Notes: a model not told the origin generated them from the sequence alone. 64,000 nt of DNA from Clostridia bacterium (GCA_045648985.1 JAZROZ010000027.1:80326-144325), one strand, 5' to 3'. Positions 1,572 to 37,225 are shown, counted from the stretch's first letter. Numbers and translations are program-made.

Positions 1572-4160
1572 ATGACGCCGATGATGAAGCAATATCTTGC
1601 CGTTAAGGAAGAATATAAAGATACAATACTGTTTTTCAGGCTGGGCGATTTTTATGAAATGTTTTTAGATGATGCCATTATTGCATCAAGAGAACTTGGA
1701 ATTACGCTTACAAGTCGCTCAAAGGGTGCCGAAAGAGATAAAAATCCAATGTGTGGTGTTCCGTATCATGCTGCTGATTCATATGTTTCAAAGCTTGTTG
1801 CTAAAGGATACAAAGTAGCAATCTGCGAGCAGATGGAAGATCCTGCATCAGTTAAAGGAATCGTAAGACGTGATGTTGTAAAGATTGTAACACCAGGAAC
1901 ACTTCAGGACACAAAGGCTTTAGATGATAAATCAAATAACTATCTTTGTGCAATATACAGAAGCGATGTTAAATACGGAGTTGCTTTTGCAGATATTACA
2001 ACGGGTGATGTTTTAGTAACGGAGTCTGAAAACACTCAAAAGCTGATAAACGAAATTGCAAGACATATGCCATCAGAGATAATTTTAAATGCCGTTGCTT
2101 TTTCAAATATTGCACTTATATCGGAAATAAAAAATCGTTTTTCGTGCCTTTGTGAGCAGACCAAGTTTGAGCCGCAATGGGAACATTCCGTGCAACTCAT
2201 TCTATCGAGAATGGAAAAAGAAAGGCTTTCCGATTTGGCTATGCCTGAAGACCTCCATATTGTAAATGCAACAGGTGAGCTTTTGACATATCTTGAAAGC
2301 ACACAAAAAGCCGTGCTTTCAAATTTAAAGCCCATTAATTATTATAGCGGCGACGAGTATATGGATATTGATATATTCACAAGACGCAACCTAGAGCTTA
2401 CTGAAACTATGCGTACTGCATCTAAAAAAGGTACACTTTTATCTGTTCTTGACAAAACAAAGACATCAATGGGTGCAAGGAAGTTAAAAGGCTTTATAGA
2501 AAAGCCACTTGTTAATTGTAATCACATACAAAAAAGGTTATATGCCGTTGATGAGTTAAGGGCAGGAGGAGAAATCCGCGAGGATTTAACAGAAACTTTA
2601 AAATCGGTAAGTGATATTGAACGTCTGACAGGAAAGGTTGCAACAAAAGCTGCGAAGAAAACAGACCTTATTTCACTTAAGCAGTCTATCCACTGCCTTC
2701 CTGTTGTTTTAGAAAAAATCGGCGGTCTTATGTCAGGATTATTTACAGAAATGTATAAAAATACGGACCCGCTTGAGGATATATATTCCCTTATTGATAA
2801 AGCGATTTATGAAGATAAAGAAGGCGAAGATTCAGACCGTATCATAAAAGAGGGATATTCCCCAGAGCTTGATGAATACTATAACCTTTTGACAAACGGT
2901 AAAGCTGCCGTTTTGGCTATGGAAGCAAGCGAAAAGGAAAAGACAGGAATCAAAACTTTAAAAGTAGCATACAACAAGGTGTTTGGCTACTATATTGAAG
3001 TTTCAAAATCATATAAGGATATGCTTCCTGAGGGATATATCAGAAAGCAGACAATAGCTAACGGAGAAAGATATATAACTCAGGAGCTAAAGGAACTGGA
3101 AGAAAAAATATTAGGTGCTGCGGATAATATAAAAACTTTAGAGAGCAGATTATTTGGAGAAGTTCGTGATAAAATAGCACAAAGCGCCACAAGGATTTTG
3201 AAAGCGGCAGATACTCTTGCTATGGTTGACGTTTTATGCTCTTTAGCAGACGTCGCAGTAAAGAATAATTACGTGATGCCGTGTGTTGATACGTCAGACA
3301 AGCTCATAATAAAAGACGGCAGGCATCCTGTTGTTGAAAAAATGCTGCAAGATGAGTTGTTTGTGCCAAATGACACATATTTGGACTGCGAAGATGACCG
3401 CCTGCTTATTATTACAGGACCTAATATGGCAGGTAAATCTACATATATGCGTCAAGTTGCGCTAATTGCTATTATGGCGCAAATTGGCAGCTTTGTGCCG
3501 GCATCTCAGTGTCATATCGGTATATGCGACAAGGTGTTTACCCGCGTTGGTGCATCGGATGACTTATCTGCAGGACAAAGTACATTTATGGTAGAAATGA
3601 CAGAGGTTTCAAATATTTTAAAAAATGCTACCAAGCGAAGCCTTTTAATTCTTGATGAAATAGGTAGAGGTACGAGCACGTATGATGGCCTTTCTATTGC
3701 GTGGTCTGTTTGCGAATATGTGGCAGACAAAAAGAAAATCGGTGCTAAAACACTTTTTGCAACTCATTATCACGAGCTTACAGAGCTTGAAGATAAGCTT
3801 TCAGGTGTTAAGAATTATTGTATTGCCTGCAAAAAACGTGGTGATGAAATTACATTTTTACGCCGTATCATAAAAGGCGGCGCTGATGAAAGCTACGGAA
3901 TAGAAGTTGCAGCCTTAGCAGGACTTCCGCCTAAGGTTATAAAACGTGCAAAAGAGATTTTAGAGGCTATTGACAGCGGTGAAAAAAATGAGATTAAAAT
4001 AAGCAATGCAACGATTAAAACGAAGGATATGCAGCTTGATTTTGGCGATATGCGAGAAAGCGAAATAGTAGCAGAGCTTGAAAAACTTGACCTTTCCACT
4101 TTAACTCCGATTGAAGCTTTAAACAAGCTTTATGAATTTCAGAAAATAGCAAAAAAATAG
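1572..4160 (+). CDS. mutS: DNA mismatch repair protein MutS
   Basis: N-terminal TPMMKQY..FFRLGDFYEMF mismatch-binding motif, Walker A GPNMAGKST, ILDEIGRGTSTYDG. SD GGGGGAG lies upstream of the ATG. Confidence 0.95.
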   Translation: MTPMMKQYLAVKEEYKDTILFFRLGDFYEMFLDDAIIASRELGITLTSRSKGAERDKNPMCGVPYHAADSYVSKLVAKGYKVAICEQMEDPASVKGIVRRDVVKIVTPGTLQDTKALDDKSNNYLCAIYRSDVKYGVAFADITTGDVLVTESENTQKLINEIARHMPSEIILNAVAFSNIALISEIKNRFSCLCEQTKFEPQWEHSVQLILSRMEKERLSDLAMPEDLHIVNATGELLTYLESTQKAVLSNLKPINYYSGDEYMDIDIFTRRNLELTETMRTASKKGTLLSVLDKTKTSMGARKLKGFIEKPLVNCNHIQKRLYAVDELRAGGEIREDLTETLKSVSDIERLTGKVATKAAKKTDLISLKQSIHCLPVVLEKIGGLMSGLFTEMYKNTDPLEDIYSLIDKAIYEDKEGEDSDRIIKEGYSPELDEYYNLLTNGKAAVLAMEASEKEKTGIKTLKVAYNKVFGYYIEVSKSYKDMLPEGYIRKQTIANGERYITQELKELEEKILGAADNIKTLESRLFGEVRDKIAQSATRILKAADTLAMVDVLCSLADVAVKNNYVMPCVDTSDKLIIKDGRHPVVEKMLQDELFVPNDTYLDCEDDRLLIITGPNMAGKSTYMRQVALIAIMAQIGSFVPASQCHIGICDKVFTRVGASDDLSAGQSTFMVEMTEVSNILKNATKRSLLILDEIGRGTSTYDGLSIAWSVCEYVADKKKIGAKTLFATHYHELTELEDKLSGVKNYCIACKKRGDEITFLRRIIKGGADESYGIEVAALAGLPPKVIKRAKEILEAIDSGEKNEIKISNATIKTKDMQLDFGDMRESEIVAELEKLDLSTLTPIEALNKLYEFQKIAKK

Positions 4161-4913: not shown

Positions 4914-5507
4914 TTAGTTATCAAATTTTTTCAAAACAAGTTCTTTTATGATTCTAACTGTTTCGTCTATTCCAATTCTGGATGTATTTATTGTGATGTC
5001 GTAGTTTGACAAATCATTCCAGGATTTTTCTGTAAAATATTTGTAGTAGGATGAACGTTGCTTATCAATCTTCTTTATATAATCTTCAGGCTTATCAGAA
5101 GCTAAGCCATATTGGTCTTTTGCTCTTTTGATGCGGTCATCCATATCGGCGCACAAAAAGACTTTAAGACAAGATGGATTATCAGCCAAAACGTTATCTG
5201 CGCACCTGCCTATAATGATACAGGGCTCATTCTGAGCAAGCTTTTTAATAATTCTTGACTGAGTCATAAAAATCTGGTCAGACAGCGGAAGCACCTGACT
5301 TGTCATATAGATGCTATAGAGAAAACTGTTGGTTTTCTTCTGTTCTGTTTCGGCAACGATTGCTTCTGCGAGGCCGCTTTCTTTTGCTGCTAAGGAAATC
5401 ATTTCCTTGTCATATACTTTAATTCCAAGTTCTATAGACAGCTTTTTTGCTATCTCTCCTGCTCCTGATGCATATTCTCTTGCGATAGTTATTACGTAGT
5501 TTTTCAT
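4914..5507 (-). CDS. Cytidylate kinase-like family P-loop protein
   Basis: N-terminal ITIAREYASGAGEIAKKLS..LGIKVYDKE pattern and ~200 aa length are typical of the cytidylate-kinase-like family. Called from recalled family features. Confidence 0.55.
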   Translation of the reverse strand: MKNYVITIAREYASGAGEIAKKLSIELGIKVYDKEMISLAAKESGLAEAIVAETEQKKTNSFLYSIYMTSQVLPLSDQIFMTQSRIIKKLAQNEPCIIIGRCADNVLADNPSCLKVFLCADMDDRIKRAKDQYGLASDKPEDYIKKIDKQRSSYYKYFTEKSWNDLSNYDITINTSRIGIDETVRIIKELVLKKFDN

Positions 5508-32247: not shown

Positions 32248-33120
32248 ATGACAAATACGGAAGATAAAATAAAAAAAGAGATTTTAAAAAATATGCCGAA
32301 GAAAATAGCAAGGCTTTTGGAAATACAGGAGTTTAAAGACCTGCGTGAAGTGAGATTCCGCACAGGACAAAAAACAATGCTATATTACGGAAACGCCATA
32401 TTATCAATCGGAAACCGTTTGACTATGCAGGAAGTTATGGAAATCTTTGAGAGCTTTTGCAAAAGCTCTGTCTACGCTTATTTAAACGAGATTAAAAGCG
32501 GATTTATAACTCTTCGTGGCGGTCATCGCGTTGGAATATGCGGAGAGTGTACTGTAGAAAATGGTGAGATAACTAATATACATAACATTTCAGGACTAAA
32601 CATCAGGATCGCCAAAGAATATGTGGGGTGTGCTACGGGGCTTATTTCGCACATAAAGGGCAAAAATGCAATAATAATTGCTCCGCCTGCCTGTGGCAAA
32701 ACAACAATGCTTCGTGATATTGCAAGGTGCTTTTCCCACACAATGAAAGTAACGGTGATTGACGAAAGGGATGAGATTTGCTCTCTGTGTGATGGAGTCC
32801 CGCAATTTAACGTCGGCAGGCAGACTGATGTTTTGTCAAAAGCACCAAAAGTACTTGGAATGACTATAGCACTTCGCTCTCTTTCGCCTGATTTGATAAT
32901 AACAGATGAAGTCGGCACAAAAGAAGATATATCTGCCATAGAACAGGTGCTTGGTGCAGGGTGTAAAATCATAACAAGCATACATGGATATAACGTAAAA
33001 ACAATAAAAGAATCAAAGGGAAGACTTTTGTCACTTTTTGATGTTGCGATAGAGTTAAAAAAAGAAAACGGAAGACCACAGATATCAAATATTATAGAAA
33101 TGGGGAAAACATATGATTAA
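32248..33120 (+). CDS. spoIIIAA: Stage III sporulation protein AA (ATPase)
   Basis: Walker A PPACGKTTMLRDIAR, Walker B LIITDEVG, first gene of an AA-AH array. Confidence 0.85.
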   Translation: MTNTEDKIKKEILKNMPKKIARLLEIQEFKDLREVRFRTGQKTMLYYGNAILSIGNRLTMQEVMEIFESFCKSSVYAYLNEIKSGFITLRGGHRVGICGECTVENGEITNIHNISGLNIRIAKEYVGCATGLISHIKGKNAIIIAPPACGKTTMLRDIARCFSHTMKVTVIDERDEICSLCDGVPQFNVGRQTDVLSKAPKVLGMTIALRSLSPDLIITDEVGTKEDISAIEQVLGAGCKIITSIHGYNVKTIKESKGRLLSLFDVAIELKKENGRPQISNIIEMGKTYD

Positions 33121-33616
33121 GATTTTGGGGATAATACTTGTATTTATAGCGTGCTTTGGACTTTCGCAAAAAAGAATTATAAAACAAAAAAAGTCAAGCG
33201 TAGAGATTCGTTCTTTAATATCAGGGCTAAAGGAGATTGCTGATAATATTTCTTTTTTTAATAAGCCGCTTCCTGAAATAATCAGCTCTGTAACAGAGCA
33301 CAATGGCAATGTTTTCTTTTCGAAAATTTGTGATATTCTTTCCCATGATGAAAAAATCAGAGTGGAAAAGGCATGGGAAAAAGCGCTGCTGGGTGACGAA
33401 CTTGACATATGCAAAAGTGCTAAGGAACCCTTGCTGACACTCGGCAAGACGATAGGCAAGCAAACGGCACAAAAAGAAGAAGAAAATATCGGCATATGCA
33501 TAGGAAAGCTTACTGATATTTTAGAAGAGGAAGAGAGACTTTCTGCGAAAAATACAAAAATGATTCAGAGTCTTGGAGTTTTGTCAGGCCTTATGATTGT
33601 TATTCTGTTTATATAA
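33113..33616 (+). CDS. spoIIIAB: Stage III sporulation protein AB
   Basis: Overlaps the spoIIIAA stop. 167 aa with N- and C-terminal TM helices. Called by position in the operon. Confidence 0.7.
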   Translation: MIKILGIILVFIACFGLSQKRIIKQKKSSVEIRSLISGLKEIADNISFFNKPLPEIISSVTEHNGNVFFSKICDILSHDEKIRVEKAWEKALLGDELDICKSAKEPLLTLGKTIGKQTAQKEEENIGICIGKLTDILEEEERLSAKNTKMIQSLGVLSGLMIVILFI

Positions 33617-33889
33617 CCGAAAGAGAGTAATTCGAACCCGCCTAAAACGGCGAAATTTTGGCATCTTTCGGGTTATCATCTTCGCAAGGCACGAAGCATT
33701 GCTTCATCTTCTGCACCAAAATCTGATCAAAATTTCGTTTGTTTTAGATCGATAGAATTTTTAAAGTGCAGATTTTTGATTGCGAAAGGCAAAAACGCAG
33801 GTAATCCTGACGGATTACCGGGTATTTTAACACATCGAAAGCGAAAATCTGCCTCTAAAAATCGGAGTTCGGATTATTCTCTTTCGGTT
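33615..33889. mobile_element. MITE-like 275-nt element with 23-nt terminal inverted repeats and no ORF
   Basis: AACCGAAAGAGAGTAATTCGAAC (33615-33637) versus the reverse complement of 33867-33889, AACCGAAAGAGAATAATCCGAAC (21/23). The interior forms two long hairpins. It fills the only large gap in the spoIIIA operon. Confidence 0.6.
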
Positions 33890-33906
33890 AGGCATGGAGG
33901 AACGAA

Positions 33907-34101
33907 ATGGGAGTAGAACTTATTTTTAAAATAGCGGCGATAGGAATTGTAGTGAGTGTGTTAAATCAGGTTTTGGTGCGTGCGGGCAGAGAAGAACAGG
34001 CGATGCTCACAACCTTAGCAGGCCTCATTGTCGTATTACTTATAATCGTCAACGAGATAAGCTATCTCTTTGAAACAATCAAAAATGTGTTTGGTTTGTA
34101 G
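33907..34101 (+). CDS. spoIIIAC: Stage III sporulation protein AC
   Basis: 64 aa, two TM helices, FKIAAIGIVVSVLNQVL..GREEQA typical of SpoIIIAC. Confidence 0.85.
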   Translation: MGVELIFKIAAIGIVVSVLNQVLVRAGREEQAMLTTLAGLIVVLLIIVNEISYLFETIKNVFGL

Positions 34102-34128: not shown

Positions 34129-34512
34129 ATGGACATTTTTAAAATTACAGCGGTAGCGGTGGTTGGAGCAGTATTTTCACTCATTTTAAAGGAGTACAAG
34201 CCGTCTTTTGCCATTTGTATCGGGATAATCTGTGCCTTGATTATTTTTGTGGAGATACTGCAGAGAATAAATTACATTTTTACAACACTTTCCTTGATAG
34301 CGGGGAAGTTAAGCTTTAGTAACGAATATATGGAAACTATCATAAAAATCACAGGTGTATCCTATATAGCGCGCTTTGGCACGGAGATTTGCCGTGATGC
34401 AGGAAGCGGCGCAGTTGCAACTAATGTGGAAATTGCGGGAAAGATTATCATAGTAATACTGAGTTTGCCTGTGCTCGTATCGGTTGTTAATCTTCTTTTG
34501 GGATTATTATGA
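34129..34512 (+). CDS. spoIIIAD: Stage III sporulation protein AD
   Basis: 127 aa polytopic protein, MDIFKI..VVGAVFSLILKEYKP.., called by position. Confidence 0.85.
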   Translation: MDIFKITAVAVVGAVFSLILKEYKPSFAICIGIICALIIFVEILQRINYIFTTLSLIAGKLSFSNEYMETIIKITGVSYIARFGTEICRDAGSGAVATNVEIAGKIIIVILSLPVLVSVVNLLLGLL

Positions 34513-35630
34513 AAACGCGGTGGGCAGCGCCCATCAGAATTTGTCTTTTTGTTATAGTTATCTTTATTACAAGTTCCTTTTCGGCTACCGCTCAGTCAAT
34601 AAATGAGGACATTTTAAAAGGTGTAGCCGATACGATAGATTTATCGGGAACAAACTTTGATTTTTATGATGAAGCACACAAAATCGTGACAGGAAAAAGC
34701 TCTTTTGATGCAAACAATATTTTCTCGGAGATAATTAATCTGCTTTTTTCTGAGATAAAAGAAAATCTACATTTACTAACAAAGGTAGCGGCGCTTTGCA
34801 TCATATCGGGTATGCTTGGTGTTATCGTGGGCGAAGATGCATCACAGGTGTGTTTTCTTGCGTGTCTTATACTGATTACAACAATGTCCGTTACTGTTTT
34901 GAAAAACGTCATTGGTACGGCTGAGGTGGCAATAGACAATCTTATGATTTTCGTGCAATCACTTCTGCCTGCAATAAGTGCTCTTGGGTTGGGCTCAAAT
35001 ATGACGTCTGCTATCAGCTTTCATCCGTCGCTTTTTATATCAATACAGATTATAATATTTGCCTGCAGACAGTGGTTTTTGCCTATGACACTTTTTATTT
35101 CGGTGCTGTCTGTAATAAACAGTATGACATCGCATTTTCATATTACGAAGCTTTTAGAAACCTGCCGTCTTTTCATAAAATGGGGGCTTGGCATTTTAAT
35201 GACCATTTATATCGCATTTTTGGGAATTTGCGGTTTTGGTCAGGCAGTGCAGGCAGGAGCAGTTTCAAAAACTGTAAAATATGCAATATGTAATTTCATA
35301 CCAATGGTTGGCGGTGTGCTTTCAGAGTCGGCAGAGTCCGTTCTCTCGGGACTTTATCTTATAAAAAACGCAGTGGGAATAGCAGGGATTTTAGCGATTT
35401 TAGCAATAGTCATAGGACCGCTTTTTAACGTTTTGGCAACGTCAATTATTTTCAGGCTTGCCGCAAGCATTTGTGAGCCGGCAGCAGACAAGAGGGTTAC
35501 AAAGGTAATATCAGACTTAGCAGGAAACGTATCGCTTGTTTTTTCAATTTTATTAATGATTTGCGTGATGTTTATAATAAGTATAGCGATGCTTTTGACA
35601 CTTTCAAGCATACCAATTATGATGAGGTAA
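34509..35630 (+). CDS. spoIIIAE: Stage III sporulation protein AE
   Basis: Signal peptide plus about 7 TM helices, 373 aa, overlaps the AD stop. Confidence 0.8.
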   Translation: MKTRWAAPIRICLFVIVIFITSSFSATAQSINEDILKGVADTIDLSGTNFDFYDEAHKIVTGKSSFDANNIFSEIINLLFSEIKENLHLLTKVAALCIISGMLGVIVGEDASQVCFLACLILITTMSVTVLKNVIGTAEVAIDNLMIFVQSLLPAISALGLGSNMTSAISFHPSLFISIQIIIFACRQWFLPMTLFISVLSVINSMTSHFHITKLLETCRLFIKWGLGILMTIYIAFLGICGFGQAVQAGAVSKTVKYAICNFIPMVGGVLSESAESVLSGLYLIKNAVGIAGILAILAIVIGPLFNVLATSIIFRLAASICEPAADKRVTKVISDLAGNVSLVFSILLMICVMFIISIAMLLTLSSIPIMMR

Positions 35631-35633
35631 ATT

Positions 35634-36098
35634 ATGGATTATTTAAAAGAATATGCAGGGAATATTATTATAATATCGGTGCTTAGCACAGTTTTTCAGA
35701 TTATAATACCTGATGGCAAACAGAAAAAGTATGTCACAGTTGTTATAGGGCTTATAGTGATGCTTGTTGTGATGGAGCCGCTTGGGATGATAGCTGCTAT
35801 AAAGGATAATTTTTTTGAAGTTCCGCGTTTTGAATTTGAAACATCAAATGAATCTTTAGAAAAAAGTCTTGTAGCAGATAGGTTTGAGATAAATCTGGCA
35901 GATAAAATTATAGAAAAGGTCAGGCTTGATACGGGAGCGGAAATAAGCTGTCAAATCAAAACTGAAAGAAATGAAAAAGGGGAAATAATGAACTTTGAAA
36001 AAGTGGAAATAAGTCCATACAAAAAGGAAACGGCAAAATATATAGGGGATGAGTTTGGCATAGATGAAAGTGTTATAGAAGGGGAAGAAAATGATTAA
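35634..36098 (+). CDS. spoIIIAF: Stage III sporulation protein AF
   Basis: Two N-terminal TM helices plus a soluble domain. Called by position in the operon. Confidence 0.65.
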   Translation: MDYLKEYAGNIIIISVLSTVFQIIIPDGKQKKYVTVVIGLIVMLVVMEPLGMIAAIKDNFFEVPRFEFETSNESLEKSLVADRFEINLADKIIEKVRLDTGAEISCQIKTERNEKGEIMNFEKVEISPYKKETAKYIGDEFGIDESVIEGEEND

Positions 36099-36600
36099 GA
36101 TAAAAGAGCTTTACGAAAAAATTATGAATACTAAGAGCCTTGCTATCATATTAATTATAGGGGTAGCTTTCCTTATGCTTCCCACTTTTTCGGGTGGAGA
36201 TAATCAAAATAAAGCAAAAAATGAGATTTTAGAATTTGATATTAAAAGGTATGAGTCAGATTTGGAAAAAAAGCTTTCCGATATGCTCTCGCAAATCAGC
36301 GGAGTAGAAAAGACAAGCGTAATGATAACCTTTAAAGACTGTGGCAGAAATGTTTATTCTCAGGATGAGCAACTGGAAAAAAGCGAAACAAATCTAAAGG
36401 GGACATCAAAGCCTGTACTTAAGAACTCATCATCAGGCACGGAAGAGCCGATTCTGATAAAGACAGAGCTTCCCAAAATCGCAGGAGTATTGGTAGTTGC
36501 CCAAGGGGCAGAAGAGGCAAAAGTGAGAGAAAACATTAAAGAGTCGATAAAAGCTGTATTAAATTTGAGCGCAAACAATATAAGTGTTGTCGCAAAATAA
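36091..36600 (+). CDS. spoIIIAG: Stage III sporulation protein AG
   Basis: N-terminal TM helix and C-terminal ..PKIAGVLVVAQGA.. ring-building-motif-like segment. Called by position. Confidence 0.7.
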   Translation: MIKIKELYEKIMNTKSLAIILIIGVAFLMLPTFSGGDNQNKAKNEILEFDIKRYESDLEKKLSDMLSQISGVEKTSVMITFKDCGRNVYSQDEQLEKSETNLKGTSKPVLKNSSSGTEEPILIKTELPKIAGVLVVAQGAEEAKVRENIKESIKAVLNLSANNISVVAK

Positions 36601-36622
36601 CCGAAAGAGAGGAAATATAAAA

Positions 36623-37225
36623 ATGAATTTACTTAACAAAATCAAAGAAAAGAAAAACCCTAAAAAGAACAGAATGATTGTACTGAGGAAAAAACAACTT
36701 GCGGCAATTGCCCTGATGATGCTCGTTGCTGCAGCGGGATATCTGAATCATACATTTAAAAATGATATAGCAGACCCCGATGCCGTAGAGGTATATAATG
36801 AAGCGGCAAAAAAACTGGGTGAAGCGCAGATGGTCAGCACAAACGATGTAGATGAGGCGCAGACAAAATCTGCAAACGGGTATTTTGCAGAAGCTCGTAT
36901 GGAAAAGGAAACAAAAAGAGAAGAGTCTATTGATACTCTTTTGCAGCTTATAGAAAGTGATAGTGCAGACAAAGCTGCAAAGGAAGTCGCGGGAGAGCAG
37001 ATAGAAGAGCTTACTTCATACACTGAAAAAGAAGTGATGATGGAAAATATGATACGAGCTAAAGGTTATAGCGATACAGTTGTGTTTATGGGAGAGAATT
37101 TAGTCAGCATAGCAGTATTCAGCGAAGGACTTAATGATGTTGACGGGGCTATAATTTCAGATATTGCAACAAGTGTGACAGGATATGGTGCGGATAAGAT
37201 TAATATAGTGGAAATCGGCGAGTAG
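36623..37225 (+). CDS. spoIIIAH: Stage III sporulation protein AH
   Basis: ATG at 36623 follows GAGAGGAAA. One TM helix followed by a charged linker and a YscJ-like C-terminal region. Last gene of the operon. Confidence 0.65.
   Translation: MNLLNKIKEKKNPKKNRMIVLRKKQLAAIALMMLVAAAGYLNHTFKNDIADPDAVEVYNEAAKKLGEAQMVSTNDVDEAQTKSANGYFAEARMEKETKREESIDTLLQLIESDSADKAAKEVAGEQIEELTSYTEKEVMMENMIRAKGYSDTVVFMGENLVSIAVFSEGLNDVDGAIISDIATSVTGYGADKINIVEIGE

Follow-up and report, generated by a model that had tools for sequence, protein, structure and literature searches.

Here, we analyzed a stretch of 64,000 nucleotides from a Clostridia bacterium (the window), in which the spoIIIA sporulation operon carries a structured insert between spoIIIAB and spoIIIAC. 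This insert is very probably a copy of a previously undescribed family of MITEs from gut Clostridia, sitting in the TA of the spoIIIAB stop codon. A first-pass annotation of the window had offered a MITE as one of two readings of the insert, and it is this reading that is favored by the dispersed copies of the element, the empty orthologous junctions and the lack of an Rfam match. In the literature we found neither a description of this MITE family nor of any insertion in spoIIIA.

The operon is tightly packed. The stop codon of spoIIIAB (33614-33616) and the ATG of spoIIIAC (33907) are 290 nt apart, while the remaining spoIIIA junctions overlap or measure at most 27 nt, so that the ORF coordinates bear out the earlier remark that this is the one long gap in the operon. 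All eight spoIIIA genes are intact and have a normal length (Table 1), and the insert is therefore probably tolerated rather than useful. In B. subtilis, sigma-G activity requires all eight SpoIIIA proteins (PMC2703783).

Table 1. Coordinates of the spoIIIA operon, the insert and its parts in the window
Feature	Position	Strand	Remarks
spoIIIAA	32248-33120	+	Pfam SpoIIIAA
spoIIIAB	33113-33616	+	Pfam Spore_III_AB, 5.8e-29; stop codon is the putative insertion target
Left copy of duplicated TA	33614-33615	.	with A33616 of the element forms the present spoIIIAB TAA (33614-33616)
Element proper, 273 nt, ACCGAAAG...CTTTCGGT	33616-33888	+	same orientation as operon; very probably a non-coding MITE copy
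Left terminal inverted repeat	33616-33640	+	5' strand of basal stem; helix 1 of family consensus
Internal hairpin A	33641-33748	+	columns 28-135 of alignment A1; consensus fold and compensatory changes
Internal hairpin B	33757-33862	+	columns 144-250 of alignment A1; capped by 8-bp hairpin 33800-33819
Right terminal inverted repeat	33864-33888	+	3' strand of basal stem
Right copy of duplicated TA	33889-33890	.	junction alignment, flanks of copies
spoIIIAC Shine-Dalgarno GGAGG	33896-33900	+	6 nt past right end of insert; same as in relatives' CGGAGGAAC
spoIIIAC	33907-34101	+	Pfam; ORF intact
spoIIIAD (AC family)	34129-34512		Pfam
spoIIIAE	34509-35630		Pfam
spoIIIAF	35634-36098		Pfam
Seventh ORF, AG position (spoIIIAG)	36091-36600		no Pfam match
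Solo 14-mer TAACCGAAAGAGAG	36598-36611	+	starts on spoIIIAG stop codon; identical to left terminus of insert
spoIIIAH	36623-37225		Pfam

With 273 nt and terminal inverted repeats, the element falls within the size range of MITEs (below about 500 bp). The repeats had been proposed to bound the gap, and indeed the arms at 33614-33637 and 33867-33890 are 24 nt long and 92% complementary. With up to 3 mismatches allowed, the 23-mer terminal repeat matches the 64-kb window at these two places only, where none is expected by chance. In the family consensus, these ends form helix 1 with 25 pairs and 98.5% of the cells paired. The predicted architecture of the insert is a basal stem of about 27 bp that carries two long internal hairpins. 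All pairings named in the first-pass annotation were found, including the hairpin at 33800-33819; positions 33651-60 and 33728-37 pair at 10 of 10 positions, and the helix 33759-85/33835-61 contains the pairing 33768-76/33844-52. Folding the insert as RNA, a check suggested earlier, gives -104.9 kcal/mol compared to -62 +/- 5 kcal/mol for dinucleotide shuffles (z = -8.67), making it far more stable than the shuffled sequences. The C-GAAA-G repeats described before are present, but they lie inside helices of the consensus fold and do not form tetraloops. The 8-bp hairpin at 33800-33819 scores terminator-like on both strands, and in the spoIIIA mRNA it would be a weak terminator-like hairpin. 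When a wider region is folded, the 3' end of spoIIIAB (33588-33612) is predicted to pair weakly, with many G-U pairs, with the Shine-Dalgarno and ATG region of spoIIIAC (33894-33914), stacking on the basal stem of the element. Such a pairing might lower translation initiation of spoIIIAC.

The element has no conserved coding capacity and no transposase gene. The interior had been described as free of ORFs, which holds for conserved ORFs but not in the strict sense, as the window insert contains two TTG-started ORFs of 52 and 46 amino acids. In the six-frame translations of other copies stop codons occur in every frame, and translated searches returned spurious short ORFs only. Read in phase with spoIIIAB, the window copy contains no stop across the entire element (33617-33913), and the rebuilt TAA alone blocks an extension of SpoIIIAB by about 99 codons. 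This open frame looks accidental, because other copies have stop codons in the same frame. A scan for sigma-70 promoters on the sense strand found none inside the element.

The insert is not confined to this operon. In other Clostridia MAGs and in gut metagenomes, homologous copies of 274-278 nt occupy about 20 unrelated junctions of housekeeping genes. A scan with the exact right terminus retrieved 10 loci in 5 Clostridia MAGs, and a scan with a degenerate terminus 20 metagenome contigs; none of the 10 genome loci tested contained spoIIIA genes. Twelve copies are full-length (274-277 nt) and 82-88% identical to the window copy, with homology over the full length. The counting of copies recommended by the first-pass annotation thus yields about 20 distinct sites in unrelated contexts, that is, multiple dispersed copies as in a MITE family, while the 64-kb window itself contains a single full copy. 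The genes that flank the copies from the terminus scans encode HutP/Cmk, HtrA-like/MBL-fold proteins, PurF, a Gate-domain protein (SpmB-like), LysA/ScpA, a DUF1015 protein and an M14 peptidase. Further sites were located by searching the translated element in a protein database, where spurious ORFs had been called across it; these lie at YlmH/DivIVA, UvrC/PALP-enzyme, an unnamed gene/EutP, an ACT-domain gene and peptide deformylase. No transposase was detected among the flanking genes tested against Pfam, all of which are housekeeping genes. The hosts are gut-associated Clostridia, represented by MAGs of the Ruminococcaceae/Oscillospirales type.

Several copies carry traces of mobility and decay. 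In MAG UMGS1494, sequence-identical 276-nt copies lie after purF (locus L001) and after the Gate-domain gene (L006), and two more contigs of this MAG break inside copies with other flanks. Identical copies at different sites point to recent movement. Two derivatives of 97 nt and 86 nt (L005, L009) have lost the interior and keep both terminal inverted repeats, and two other loci (L007, L047) hold 5'-truncated relics. Numerous contigs end inside a copy, as expected, because the repeat breaks assemblies. In L023, inverted copies (2730-3004 on the minus strand and 4949-5104 on the plus strand) bracket the gene for an HtrA-like protease; the arrangement is composite-transposon-like, and the contig end cuts the second copy. 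Three copies (L027:1178-1452, L022:3464-3738 and L031:901-1175) have a common right flank with the DUF1015 gene, the proteins being 99% identical. The left flank of L027 is unrelated to that of L022 and L031, and the left termini differ slightly. Either these copies have recombined or the assemblies are chimeric at the repeat. In L036 the left flank of L006 is joined to a right flank that resembles the one in L001.

The insertion point can be read from the orthologous operons. The nearest homologues of SpoIIIAA show 72%, 64% and 59% identity, and their loci share the synteny of the window, where GS-III and an amidohydrolase, both encoded on the opposite strand, precede spoIIIAA-AH. In these three relatives the gap between spoIIIAB and spoIIIAC is 12, 21 and 25 nt long. 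A SpoIIIAC with the same sequence as in the window is encoded by ten further contigs, and here the junction measures 12 nt in nine cases and 30 nt in one. The comparison set thus comprised 13 orthologous spoIIIA loci, which represent at least four related lineages. The empty junction that the earlier reading called for was found in every relative: all 13 loci have a junction of 12-30 nt, and an nhmmer search with the element profile detected the element in none of them. As a separate observation, the gene calls in two of the relatives (L049:3596-4705 and L052:3596-4705) split spoIIIAE into two ORFs (245 + 114 amino acids and 245 + 104 amino acids) in place of one ORF of 369 amino acids. A frameshift, a pseudogene or faulty assembly could account for this.

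The junction of the relatives reads ...TTTGTA TAG CGGAGGAAC..ATG, where the part behind the stop begins with CGGAGG, or has TAA/TAG and a short spacer. In the window the corresponding sequence is ...TTTATA TA(ACCGAAAG...CTTTCGGT)TA GGCATGGAGGAAC..ATG, and in the alignment with the empty sites the right TA is followed by GGCATGGAGG... Removal of the element together with one TA leaves ...TTTATA TAG GCATGGAGGAAC, which aligns with ...TTTGTA TAG CGGAGGAAC of the relatives and restores a normal junction as well as the F-(I/V)-stop ending that is conserved in SpoIIIAB. Filled and empty sites hence differ by a duplication of a single TA, the TA of the stop codon, as read from one empty-site comparison across species. 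We regard this TA as a duplicated target, because SpoIIIAB would have lacked a stop at this position if both TAs were part of the element. As far as aligned sequences can tell, the comparison shows the element to have entered the TA of a spoIIIAB TAG/TAA stop codon and to have duplicated it. For the other copies, no empty sites were present among the fetched loci. Most likely, a transposase acting in trans moved the element of about 273 nt, with its terminal inverted repeats of 24-27 bp and no conserved ORF, into the stop-codon TA. Since the element begins with A, its first base rebuilds the stop codon as TAA. On the other side, spoIIIAC keeps its Shine-Dalgarno sequence, 6 nt past the right end, and its start codon untouched. 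The element can reasonably be taken to be co-transcribed with the operon, because spoIIIAC-spoIIIAF have no obvious other promoter. In the spoIIIA mRNA it would form a three-way junction on the basal stem of about 27 bp.

The placement of the other copies follows the same pattern. At five independent sites, namely in the window and after the HutP, Gate-domain, PurF and M14-peptidase genes, the upstream stop codon is a TAA made of TA and the first A of the element. At seven or more sites, 0-7 nt separate the right end from the Shine-Dalgarno sequence of the next gene. This placement, on a stop codon and upstream of a ribosome-binding site, is best read as the residue of purifying selection on TA-targeted insertions in compact operons; insertions in coding sequence or between Shine-Dalgarno sequence and start codon would be lost. 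At co-directional gene junctions (the window and loci L001-L048) the element is always in the orientation of the genes. The count is at least eight sites from orientation-blind scans plus five from the translated-ORF search, the latter being possibly slightly biased with respect to orientation. An antisense gene reads into the element at one site only, between convergent genes (L020). Candidates to explain the orientation bias are polarity of the antisense orientation, a function of the sense RNA and a link to the direction of replication.

The foldback itself is under some constraint. The consensus fold of eight copies contains 96 pairs with 98.3% of the cells paired. Testing for covariation, as had been proposed, revealed compensatory changes in 7 pairs among these 8 copies, a number reached by 0 of 500 shuffles and compared to 0-1 in slid controls, and in 16 pairs when 11 copies were used. 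Examples are columns 32/133 and 36/129 of alignment A3 in hairpin A, and columns 150/247, 159/239 and 172/227 in hairpin B. Because the compensatory changes exceed those of all 500 shuffles, the alignments indicate that the foldback is conserved and not accidental. We dropped the idea of a fold specific to the sense-strand RNA, in which conserved G-U pairs would mark the sense strand, as the minus strand folds equally well or better (-99 kcal/mol for the minus versus -83 kcal/mol for the plus strand consensus, with 7 versus 4 majority G-U columns). The constraint could act on DNA hairpins or on either RNA, or it could arise from repair within the palindrome.

If the MITE were passive filler only, compensatory changes in its interior would be unneeded. 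A rival possibility is that the MITE has been co-opted at the RNA level, with the three-way foldback serving in polycistronic mRNAs as an RNase III processing or stability element, or as a partial terminator that uncouples spoIIIAA-AB from spoIIIAC-AH. Such a co-option is compatible with a MITE origin, and selection would account for the fixed orientation and the covariation; we nevertheless consider it rather unlikely. In its favor are the co-orientation with the flanking genes at all operon-type junctions, the compensatory changes, a basal duplex of about 27 bp that is long enough for RNase III, and the terminator-like hairpin at 33800-33819. A subfamily of two copies (L045:978-1254 and L046:539-815) fits as well, as it keeps the interior (about 80% identity) despite different outer termini. 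However, the relatives manage without the element at this junction, the short derivatives persist without the interior, and the orientation bias is equally explicable by counter-selection of a polar antisense orientation or by gene-strand bias. Since the minus strand folds as well or better, the sense RNA is also not marked as the selected molecule. An incidental effect of the inserted element on spoIIIA at the RNA level is possible.

The subfamily differs from the other copies in the outer 13-14 nt of both termini, which read GGGTGACAG... (GGGTGACAGMAGYTAT...) compared to the usual AACCGAAAGAGAG... (AACCGAAAGAGAGTAAT...). TA flanks are found on both sides in L046 and on the right side only in L045. 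This suggests that the termini were exchanged, perhaps for the use of a different transposase. A near-consensus promoter (TTGACA, 17 nt, TAAAAT) lies just upstream of the copy in L045, which places this element in a 5' UTR.

Similar RNA-level roles have been discussed for other bacterial repeats. Correia elements are flanked by TA, have terminal inverted repeats of about 26 bp and are often co-transcribed with their neighbors. We know of no autonomous partner for them. The terminal inverted repeats of Correia/NEMIS elements pair in the co-transcribed mRNA, and the transcripts are proposed RNase III targets (PMC2229807); by this analogy RNase III may cleave the present element. The likeness is one in kind, taken from the description, since Correia elements are 107-155 bp long and proteobacterial in contrast to the element of about 273 nt from Clostridia. 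Furthermore, they carry an IHF site and putative promoters, and nothing comparable was detected in the present element. ERIC/IRU elements likewise are imperfect palindromes that are co-transcribed with the flanking genes, and they reportedly alter the relative stability of the mRNA segments on their upstream and downstream sides (PMC2229807). Here, too, the likeness is in kind and from description; ERIC elements, about 127 bp long, come from another phylum, and a TA duplication is not established for them.

A second trace of the family may exist in the same operon. The outermost 14 nt of the insert had been reported to recur at the spoIIIAG/AH junction, and we find the match at 36598-36611 to be exact, with a chance expectation of 0.04 matches at up to one mismatch. 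In the window and loci L001-L048 this is the sole occurrence of the 14-mer outside true element ends. It runs into the purine-rich ribosome-binding region of spoIIIAH and is absent from the AG-AH junction of the relatives. Possibly, it is what remains of a second copy after nearly complete deletion. One may go further and imagine an operon-junction MITE with a selected three-way foldback on interchangeable outer termini, which is sense-only since the fold acts on the polycistronic mRNA, and which sets the ratio of SpoIIIAA/AB to SpoIIIAC-AH, the erased second copy at 36598-36611 supplying the ribosome-binding region of spoIIIAH. We think this extended version unlikely. If true, the spoIIIA insert would mark a boundary of mRNA processing or stability, or a point of partial termination.

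Returning to the MITE and the enzyme that moves it, distinct flanks, about 13 on the left and about 13 on the right, could be compared. Nearly all have a T in front of AACCG... at the left end and an A behind ...CGGTT at the right end, and the positions beside this T and A are mostly Y and R, which gives a YTAR-like target. Exceptions are the left flank of L045 (TT) and the right end of L039 (extra TC), and these two deviate from the TA insertion with a 2-bp TA duplication that is otherwise seen, as in IS630/Tc1-mariner elements. The transposase is thus most likely a TA-duplicating DDE enzyme of the cut-and-paste type, similar to IS630/Tc1-mariner. Since no autonomous partner with matching termini was found in 58 loci, in Pfam scans of flanking genes or in a six-frame protein search, we infer this IS630-type assignment solely from the TA duplication together with the palindromic YTAR-like target. 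A search of 5.8 billion proteins with the concatenated six-frame translation gave a single hit, an unrelated beta-helix protein that extends into a copy, and collections of plasmids, phages and viral contigs contained no match to the element. The orientation bias counts against a simple DDE reading, because cut-and-paste DDE transposition should insert either way.

A close known counterpart in kind is RUP, a 107-bp MITE of Streptococcus pneumoniae that is thought to be mobilised by IS630-Spn1 (PMC2229807). As described there, RUP is an intergenic non-coding repeat of a Firmicute with terminal inverted repeats, TA insertion, stop codons in all frames and a stem-loop (PMC2229807). The TA duplication and the YTAR-like flanks of the present element match the IS630/Tc1-mariner transposition proposed for RUP (PMC2229807). 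The differences are in size (107 bp versus about 273 nt, the likeness being drawn from description), in the partner, an IS with matching terminal inverted repeats that is known for RUP and was not found for the present element, and in the sites, as RUP tends to land in IS elements whereas the present copies sit in housekeeping operon junctions.

Alternatively, the hairpin element could be moved as single-stranded DNA by an HUH enzyme (REPIN/RAYT or IS200/IS605-like) in a strand-specific manner relative to replication. Over its full length the element forms a conserved foldback, and compensatory changes are seen on both strands. The bias in gene orientation could mirror replication-fork orientation, and the strand that bears the window copy shows a positive GC skew in the surrounding region. 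REPINs are also long hairpin-forming repeats. Their pairing is kept through compensatory changes. HUH-type single-strand elements have a conserved left target of 4-5 nt and make no target duplication. In contrast, the ends of the present element are long terminal inverted repeats that pair mutually over 24-27 bp and not separate subterminal hairpins, the flanks share only the left T and right A (YTAR-like) and no conserved 4-5-nt left target, and the empty-site comparison gives a TA duplication. REPINs have neither a target duplication nor long terminal inverted repeats of the present type, so that the TA duplication and YTAR-like flanks do not fit. Moreover, no REP-like GTAG motif is visible at the copy ends inspected. 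We consider mobilization by an HUH enzyme quite improbable.

The second reading of the first-pass annotation was a cis-acting RNA of spoIIIA (a processing site, an attenuator or a stoichiometry control). A regulatory RNA dedicated to spoIIIA that arose within the operon, be it one of these or a riboswitch, would agree with the high degree of structure (z = -8.7) and with the position between the ATPase/AB genes and the channel genes. It is contradicted by the absence of the element from 13 of 13 orthologous operons and by its presence at about 20 unrelated junctions, and is very improbable. The Rfam search that had been advised speaks against it as well: no relevant family was found at gathering or permissive score. 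At the gathering score, the window gave nothing but an unrelated FMN riboswitch (RF00050, 60736-60852 on the minus strand, 102 bits, E = 1.3e-22), and at E <= 10 the region 33500-34000 gave only a 14-bit miRNA noise match. A long spacer of ancestral origin, or a palindrome formed by chance, for which nothing speaks beyond the presence of the insert in the window, has next to no probability: the spacer is ruled out by the empty junctions in the 13 orthologous loci, and for a palindrome arising by chance no match of the terminal repeat is expected and no shuffle folds as well.

The MITE reading explains the odd 290-nt gap in a tightly packed, essential sporulation operon, and it adds a MITE family to the uncultured gut Clostridia. 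The insertion is an ordinary kind of event and a tidy example of it, for which no new mechanism is required. Less ordinary are the compensatory changes in the foldback, the uniform co-orientation and the subfamily with different outer termini. For annotation, the family flags a repeat that breaks MAG assemblies and generates spurious 'hypothetical proteins'. For the organism, the insert illustrates how a TA-duplicating element can occupy a stop codon harmlessly, as its first base rebuilds the stop and the next ribosome-binding site is spared.
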